Assembly: GCF_055900595.2 (NCBI RefSeq) | Contig: NZ_CM148325.1 | DNA: 64,000 nt | Strand: one strand, 5' to 3' | In this document: positions 28,687 through 29,835 of the stretch, piece after piece | Position numbering within the stretch: the stretch's first letter is position 1 | Layout: every line of letters begins with the position of its first letter | Position numbers and translations under genes: made by a program | The notes under the pieces: generated by a model | Seen by the model: the letters and a program-made list of their open reading frames with translations, nothing else | Database searches by the model: none | What the model was told of the DNA's origin: nothing

Positions 28687-29835
28687 TCAATTAAGACTTA
28701 CTTCTTTGGCGACAGTCGGTTGTACGCTCTGATGCTTTCGCGCCTGGGCAGCCGCTTCCTCAACAGGAATATCCTCAAAGCCGAGCAACAGTGTGAGGAT
28801 AAACGACAGCACGACCGCCAGCGCCATGACGGCGAACACCCAGACGATGCTCATTGGATTCGCCGGATCGAAGAACTGCACGCTGGTAAATAATCCCGGC
28901 GCTGCCATTGAGTGGCTGGCAAGCCCCGCCATACCGGCAACCGCGCCGCAAATAAAACCGCTGATAAGACTGGCGATAAGCGGACGTTTCAGGCGGATCG
29001 CCACGCCGTATAACGCGGGTTCGGAAATCCCCGCCATAATGGCTGATGCCGCCGCAGCCAGCGCCGTCTGGCGCAGTTCCGGGTTTTTCGTTTTCCACGT
29101 CACCGCCGGTGTAATGCTGTCCACCCAGCGTTCGATATATGACAGGCACCAGGTCATCACCAGCGCCGGGATCACCGTGTAGGTGTATTTCACCGCGGTG
29201 ACCGGAATCAGGGCAAATTCAACATGTTCACCCTGGGCCGCTTTCGCCATCAGCTCAATAAAACTCGGATGTACCAGCACACCCGCAATGGCAATCGCCA
29301 GCGACATATTGGTTTTAAATTTGATGGCGGCAGAAGCAGCGACCATCAGCGGCAGGAAGAAGAAAGCACCATCACCAATCACATTGAGAATGGTTAAGGT
29401 CGGCGATCCTTTTGTCAGCACGCCGCTCATCTCGAGGATCATCGCCAGCAGTTTGACCATCGATCCGCCGATGATCGCCGGGATCAGCGGTGACATGGTG
29501 CCGATCAGCGCATCCAGGATCCCCGCACCAATGCGACGTAGCGTGAGTTTGGGTTTCCCCACGGGCTGCGTGGGCTGCATATCTCCAGGTAACAAGCTGA
29601 CAACTTCCTGAAAGGTCTGCGAAACCGTATTACCTATAATCACCTGACACTGGTTGTCACTACGTACCACACCGAGCACGCCGGAGATAGTTTTTAACGT
29701 TGGGCTGTCGATCAATGCATCATCTTTGATAACAAAGCGTAAACGCGTCATACAGTGCGTGACTGCCGAGATGTTATCAACGCCGCCCAGTGCCGCTATC
29801 ACCGAGCGTGCCAGCGCCGCATAATTTTTGGCCAT
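28687..29835 (-). CDS. ascF: PTS beta-glucoside EIIBC component AscF, apparently shortened (382 aa)
   Basis: N-terminal EIIB with CMTRLR site and C-terminal GISEP motif both present, but ORF is ~100 codons shorter than the 485 aa I recall for AscF. Confidence 0.7.

Follow-up and report, generated by a model that had tools for sequence, protein, structure and literature searches.

A lineage-specific in-frame deletion of 309 bp within the EIIC-coding part of Escherichia coli ascF

The window analysed here, a stretch of 64,000 nucleotides from contig NZ_CM148325.1 (RefSeq assembly GCF_055900595.2), contains the asc locus in the order ascG (divergent)-ascF-ascB, an order present in the open reading frames (ORFs) of the window as well as in the annotation of syntenic relatives. 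The locus is composed of the following elements:

27254..28678, minus strand: ascB, 6-phospho-beta-glucosidase, 474 aa, intact (ORF; AscB annotation in relatives)
28687..29835, minus strand: ascF deletion allele, encoding EIIB and a truncated EIIC (ORF list; NCBIfam NF007311; alignment to intact ascF)
29836..30094, no strand: divergent ascG-ascF intergenic control region, unchanged (sister-genome comparison)
30095..31105, plus strand: ascG, LacI/GalR-type repressor of ascFB, 336 aa, intact (ORF; AscG annotation in relatives)

The ascF allele occupies an ORF of 382 codons plus a stop that starts with ATG and runs without interruption, in agreement with the preliminary description of this DNA. 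Its product has an N-terminal stretch that includes HCMTRLRF and ends in KEVSLN. Compared to the sister genome with an intact ascF, ascB has no mismatches, and neither ascG nor the ascG-ascF intergenic region shows any difference. A simple scan of the intergenic region (29836..30094) gave no strong match to the sigma-70 consensus, and scanning the ascF region for promoters and terminators returned nothing informative. Between ascB and hycI lies a plus-strand ORF of 251-257 aa (26377-27150) annotated as a hypothetical protein in relatives; its N-terminus resembles a signal peptide, and no Pfam hit is on record for it.

The ascF product was compared with NF007311, the NCBIfam equivalog for AscF (PTS cellobiose/arbutin/salicin transporter subunit IIBC), a profile of 485 positions. 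It scores 754.5 bits (E = 3.9e-227), above the curated cut-off of 722, in two stretches. The profile is not covered from end to end: the first stretch pairs residues 1-246 with profile positions 1-246, and the product has nothing that corresponds to residues 247-349 of intact AscF. Intact AscF has 485 residues in this profile, in K-12 BW25113 and in the RefSeq annotation of NZ_CP098223 (strain Z0117EC0005), the closest complete genome, which served as the reference (ascF of 1458 bp, 485 aa). Global alignment of the two genes revealed no mismatches over 1149 nt and a single gap of 309 nt, which corresponds to gene nt 737-1045, or 103 codons (K247-A349). The junction lies between window positions 29100 and 29099, with an ambiguity of 2 nt (CG). 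Likewise, BLASTP matched residues 1-246 of the product to residues 1-246 of K-12 BW25113 AscF, and residues 247-382 to residues 350-485. The ascF locus, taken as ascF with flanking ends from ascB and from the ascG side, was further searched by megablast against 5426 complete E. coli genomes, 4698 of which matched. Among the matches listed, every one was in two pieces that spanned 2010 bp for 1701 bp of query, and therefore 309 bp are missing from the window. Thus, the ascF allele is a lineage-specific in-frame deletion of exactly 309 bases. The preliminary description had anticipated much of this: it gave a length of 485 aa for AscF, which is correct for all three references, estimated an in-frame loss of about 100 codons (~309 bp), for which the alignment gives 103 codons, and proposed the K-12 comparison that confirmed the gap. 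It also named the junction peptide and placed the junction near 29090-29100, exactly where it was found.

Three parts of the protein are retained:

29707..29805, minus strand: core of the EIIB domain (Pfam PTS_EIIB, aa 11-43; E = 1.7e-15)
29098..29541, minus strand: N-terminal part of EIIC (aa 99-246) with scaffold-domain helices (PF02378 model positions 3-140)
28690..29097, minus strand: C-terminal part of EIIC (intact aa 350-485; PF02378 model positions 268-319)

The EIIB sequence matches solved EIIB domains and keeps the codon of Cys28 (29752-29754), a residue invariant in all 122 sequences of a conservation alignment. This alignment consists of intact AscF and 121 homologues of 29-64% identity, drawn from 1.84 billion representative proteins. 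The AlphaFold2 model of intact AscF, built on this alignment and confident (mean pLDDT of 90.7, pTM of 0.84), places helices at residues 99-137, 145-159, 161-172, 177-187, 190-200 and 222-241 in the retained N-terminal part of EIIC, and at residues 355-371, 375-385, 387-405 and 431-454 in the retained C-terminal part. The latter comprises an HP2-like hairpin bearing the GISEP motif (window 29017-29031; product residues 269-273), two further membrane helices and the C-terminal tail. The glutamate of GISEP (E375 in the intact protein, E272 in the product) is invariant among the homologues.

The EIIC domain of the product is incomplete. PF02378 (PTS_EIIC) covers intact AscF from model position 3 to 319, whereas the product is covered at positions 3-140 and 268-319 only, the deletion having removed positions ~141-267 of 319. 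In the model of the intact protein, four predicted helices (residues 244-289, 291-307, 309-324 and 330-351) are excised almost exactly, in line with the original suggestion that the gap falls in the middle of EIIC and removes membrane helices. Within the lost segment, P252, P269, G271, G308, H310, P315 and G325 are near-invariant in the 122-sequence alignment; H310, the conserved histidine of the first re-entrant hairpin, is gone together with helices 291-307 and 309-324.

Searches of solved structures with the single sequences of the 382-aa and 485-aa proteins found EIIB domains only, and a profile search found MalT (PDB 5IWS) weakly (E = 3e-4) and over the C-terminal part only. As sequence searches thus gave no residue-level mapping, EIIC was mapped by AlphaFold, Foldseek and conserved motifs. 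Structural similarity search using Foldseek revealed that the intact AscF model has the fold of the glucose-superfamily EIIC, with a probability of 1.00 against PtsG (PDB 8QSR), MalT (PDB 5IWS and 6BVG) and a TreB model. In PtsG, the scaffold domain consists of TM1-5 and is connected to the transport domain by an amphipathic stretch that extends TM5; HP1 follows this link and bears H211/H212, TM6 bears K257, and HP2 bears G295-T297-E298 (PMC11393339). The elements of HP1, TM6 and HP2 together build the sugar pocket (PMC11393339). From the order of the helices and the His and GISEP motifs, which take the place of a residue-level structural superposition in this assignment, we infer that the lost helices of AscF correspond to the TM5/linker helix, HP1a, HP1b and TM6, and that the retained C-terminal part corresponds to HP2, TM7 and TM8. 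The 382-aa product keeps a phosphorylatable EIIB, the hairpin with GISEP and the greater part of the scaffold helices that form the dimer; it has lost the helix linking scaffold and transport domains, both arms of HP1 with the near-invariant His310, and the next membrane helix. By homology with PtsG, these lost elements would make up roughly half of the pocket that binds the sugar. When the 382-aa product itself was modelled, local confidence stayed high, as expected of a model driven by the alignment; what fell was the pTM, to 0.59, and the pLDDT at the junction, to 63. We regard this as weak evidence.

At the junction of the deletion, the window carries a hybrid repeat:

29098..29111, minus strand: hybrid junction repeat CACCGGCGGTGACG (gene nt 725-738), with the microhomology CG at 29099-29098

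A search for short direct repeats at this point, another check proposed at the outset, found a direct repeat of 14 nt, 12 of which match. Intact ascF of this lineage has its two copies at a distance of 309 nt, CACCGGCGGTGACG on the left and CACTGGCGGTGGCG on the right. They share the 7-nt core GGCGGTG, which occurs exactly twice in intact ascF (nt 729 and 1038); only 19 of 1.03 million position pairs within the gene reach a match of 12/14 (1.8e-5). There is no foreign sequence at the junction. As the product has the left-hand variants of the repeat followed by the right-hand flank, the crossover is placed in the CG just after the core. Since the junction sits on the only two copies of GGCGGTG, inside the 12/14 repeat, a slippage-type deletion between short repeats is likely. 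The junction bears the classic signature of a short-direct-repeat deletion, either by slippage or by RecA-independent recombination. This proposed mechanism draws on the flanking 7-nt core and the 12/14 repeat, the microhomology at the exact crossover being just 2 nt.

We propose that a single spontaneous 309-bp deletion occurred in a recent ancestor of one E. coli clone, between the two copies of the imperfect direct repeat CAC(C/T)GGCGGTG(A/G)CG, most likely through strand slippage or RecA-independent short-homology recombination during replication. The reading frame was kept, and a 382-aa protein is still encoded, because the repeats lie 309 nt (103 codons) apart. In K-12 BW25113, the corresponding positions (ascF nt 725-738 and 1034-1047) read CACCGGCGGTGACC in the left copy and CACTGGCAGTGGCG in the right copy. 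As the right-hand core is GGCAGTG in K-12, the gene of the present lineage would be the better substrate for this deletion, and on the sequences compared the GGCGGTG pair is a feature of this lineage. In addition, a second exact repeat of 9 nt, ACGAAAAAC, adjoins the used one in intact ascF (nt 736-744 and 1054-1062), with an in-frame spacing of 318 nt, and the two ends of the deletion encode similar peptides, AVTKN and AVAWKTKN.

The allele is found well beyond this assembly. An identical 382-aa protein is present on 72 public contigs across NCBI, ENA and Logan assemblies, and in 109 blocks of a gene index; its NCBI accessions (EGO7937285.1, EGO8452646.1, EGO9669476.1 and EHK9586262.1) are named "PTS transporter subunit EIIC". 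Carriers number ~100 assemblies, among them GCA_027551725.1, GCA_045890235.1 and ERZ25021408; intact sisters include Z0117EC0005, E400634 and AST85. Three independently assembled carrier loci, two from NCBI and one from ENA, were compared with the window over 7149 nt and show 0, 1 and 1 SNP. For the nearest genome in which ascF is intact, the count over this span is 2 SNPs, both in hypF and the only ones in the left part of 3.7 kb. With carriers at 0-1 SNP and an intact sister at 2 SNPs, the data point to a single, recent origin of the deletion and its clonal inheritance. A junction-spanning probe of 50 nt, which can seed megablast only across the junction, detected the deletion allele in none of the 5426 complete RefSeq E. 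coli genomes, a result that is meaningful because the same probe design recovered another ascF allele in 11 genomes. In NZ_CP025859.1 and NZ_CP145679.1 the probe matched from nt 14 to 50 with one mismatch; neither genome has the deletion, and the match indicates a SNP that brings the right-hand repeat copy closer to the left one. As it is absent from the 5426 complete genomes, the 309-bp junction could serve as a convenient clonal marker.

To place this allele among E. coli genomes at large, 60 records were sampled evenly from the 4699 that bear ascF. The gene has 1458 bp in 58 of them; the other two are a gene with a frameshift of 2 bp and a gene truncated by the start of its record. The share of intact genes among the ascF-bearing complete genomes sampled evenly is thus about 97%, and ascF is generally maintained. 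The locus probe found no match in 728 of the 5426 complete genomes, and complete absence of the locus is far commoner among them than an internal deletion. Elsewhere in the window, the seven closest complete genomes among those listed have an IS200/IS605 element of ~709 bp (tnpA) that separates rpoS from a MarR-family gene. Downstream of rpoS, at ~4688-4690, the window is without this copy; over the remainder of window 1-24000 its identity to the genomes with the element, which span 24,712 bp against 24,000 bp, is 99.98-100%. This second indel, the IS200/IS605 copy of the relatives, is unrelated to ascF. Window 32000-56000 (hypF to alaS/gshA) is collinear with strain AST85 at 100.0% identity, and holds highly repeated content that matches at a median of 26 places per genome.

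Further analysis of the homologue list revealed at least 12 other distinct E. coli AscF proteins with in-frame internal deletions in EIIC, each of 12 to 60 codons. The residues deleted are 106-132, 109-135, 112-137, 116-161, 130-178, 171-204, 200-223, 214-243, 254-265, 254-313, 277-294 and 365-376, and most of these alleles lie on exact repeats of 6-9 nt; the 103-codon deletion of the window is the largest seen. The commonest of the others lacks residues 106-132 (81 bp), which leaves a protein of 458 aa on at least 1000 contigs. It occurs in 11 of the 5426 complete genomes, nine of which are O121 or O121:H19 STEC, for example NZ_CP028110.1 (O121 str. RM8352; ascF at 1204-2580 of the locus), and its deletion lies at the repeat GATCCTCGA, which has 9 nt in a K-12-type sequence. 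RefSeq annotates it as an ordinary AscF, with no pseudogene label. The list shows no in-frame bias in itself, because frameshifted genes would split into short ORFs and be missing from it. The protein hits had suggested that in-frame deletions of ascF are common, but the idea that an in-frame bias had been demonstrated was rejected as an artefact of ascertainment: in the even sample 58 of 60 genes are intact, and the sole length variant is the 2-bp frameshift.

With regard to function, elevator-type transport should be impossible in the 382-aa product, because the scaffold and transport domains have lost their connection and roughly half of the binding pocket is missing. Judged by the model and the homology with PtsG, it is almost certain that the product can neither bind arbutin, salicin or cellobiose nor translocate them. 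Structure and conservation together argue strongly for a loss of AscF function, and the most probable effect of the repeat-mediated in-frame deletion is to inactivate a PTS permease that is dispensable and normally silent. The allele would then be a transporter-null mutation, although the 382-aa protein might retain some residual or altered activity. The asc operon is described as cryptic (PMC4488073), in agreement with the preliminary description, and even derepressed strains are poor users of cellobiose (PMC4488073). A transporter-null allele could therefore persist, because the operon is silent or dispensable under most conditions; the 728 complete genomes in which the locus probe found no match also speak for dispensability. 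Within K-12 ascF, an internal transcription start of ascB has been mapped at +1419 (PMC4488073), outside the deleted nt 737-1045. The deletion leaves ascG and ascB intact and the mapped internal ascB start untouched. We predict that carriers of this clone cannot acquire the use of arbutin, salicin or cellobiose through activation of asc. That losing AscF is neutral is our assumption, as the gene is generally maintained where it is present.

Several other readings of the allele were weighed. One holds, as an alternative to neutral decay, that ascF is a recurrent target of in-frame deletion in independent E. coli lineages (this clone, O121 STEC and about ten others), either because loss of the permease is selected while the operon stays translated and ascB usable, or because the cells escape an agent that uses AscF; taken as a whole, we consider it improbable. 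In its first form, an in-frame deletion would abolish transport by AscF, keep translation going through ascF and avoid polarity on ascB. AscB would then stay available to cleave phospho-beta-glucosides that enter through another PTS permease, for example Chb or Bgl. It is consistent with the dozen or more distinct in-frame alleles in E. coli, one of them fixed in O121 STEC, with an ascB identical to that of the sister genome, and with the joint contribution of AscB and the chb transporter to cellobiose use (PMC4488073). However, the allele list, biased against frameshifted genes, shows no excess of in-frame events, the one length variant of the unbiased sample is a frameshift, and a third of random deletions are in frame anyway; moreover, as ascB has a start of its own at +1419 of ascF, the need for read-through is lowered. 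This selective reading is accordingly an unlikely one. The second form regards the EIIC deletions as escape mutations, with AscF as an inner-membrane entry factor for a phage, a bacteriocin or a contact-dependent inhibition toxin. Other PTS EIIC proteins are exploited in this way, and the recurrence of independent EIIC deletions is all that the data offer in its favor; but AscF should be rare in the membrane when its operon is normally silent, the deletion alleles are individually rare, with 0 and 11 carriers among 5426 genomes, and literature searches gave no such role for AscF, all of which makes resistance very improbable.

The gap could also be an artefact of assembly or sequencing, or 382 aa could be the ancestral length, with an insertion in the 485-aa AscF. 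In principle, short direct repeats can mislead assemblers, and nothing else speaks for an artefact. The allele recurs across NCBI, ENA and Logan assemblies made independently, reads would need a far longer repeat than one of 14 nt to collapse, and the junction-probe method was validated by its positive control. As for an ancestral short form, the segment is present in all 122 diverse homologues, with near-invariant residues within it, and the gene has its full length in 58 of the 60 E. coli records of the even sample. These observations refute both versions, to which we give next to no weight. Altogether, we hold with considerable confidence that a single clonal, repeat-mediated deletion of 309 bp produced a transporter-null allele that persists as asc is silent or dispensable.

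The gene, the kind of mutation and the allele sequence are already in public data, and the decay of a dispensable, silent gene in one clonal lineage is an ordinary event; literature searches found nothing specific on ascF pseudogenes or deletions. Beyond strain-level bookkeeping the finding matters little. It does illustrate that in-frame deletions that gut a domain escape pseudogene flagging, as the 382-aa product is named EIIC and the O121 allele keeps the name AscF. With no pseudogene flag, comparisons of gene content would therefore count a dead transporter as present.

Compared to K-12 AscF (P24241; NF007311), the allele lies at the same locus (ascG and ascF-ascB between hydN/hypF and hycI), and its product shares 96-99% amino-acid identity over the retained parts, with the EIIB domain and GISEP common to both. 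The product lacks residues 247-349 (103 of 485 aa, ~40% of the Pfam EIIC model), including the conserved LVMTGMH hairpin. The intact AscF model has the same fold as the elevator transporters PtsG/IICB-Glc (PDB 8QSR) and MalT (PDB 5IWS), with a His-containing HP1 and a GIT/SE-containing HP2, at a sequence identity of 12-16%; however, the domain order is reversed, since EIIB is N-terminal in AscF. In this comparison, H211/H212 of PtsG would correspond to H310 of AscF, which is lost, and E298 to E375, which is kept, whereas the equivalents of HP1 and TM6 are missing from the window allele. The 458-aa allele of STEC O121:H19 resembles that of the window: it is clonally inherited and annotated as an ordinary protein, and its deletion is internal to EIIC, in frame and located at a short direct repeat. 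This deletion is smaller (27 codons), affects the first scaffold helix and belongs to another lineage. Silent genes are expected to gather inactivating mutations in some lineages. The classic literature on the cryptic beta-glucoside operons deals with activating mutations, for example the loss of AscG. Among these operons (bgl, asc, and chb for cellobiose), asc is silent unless mutated (PMC4488073). In contrast to the classic activating mutations, the change in the window is a structural mutation that would inactivate the permease while the repressor stays intact.
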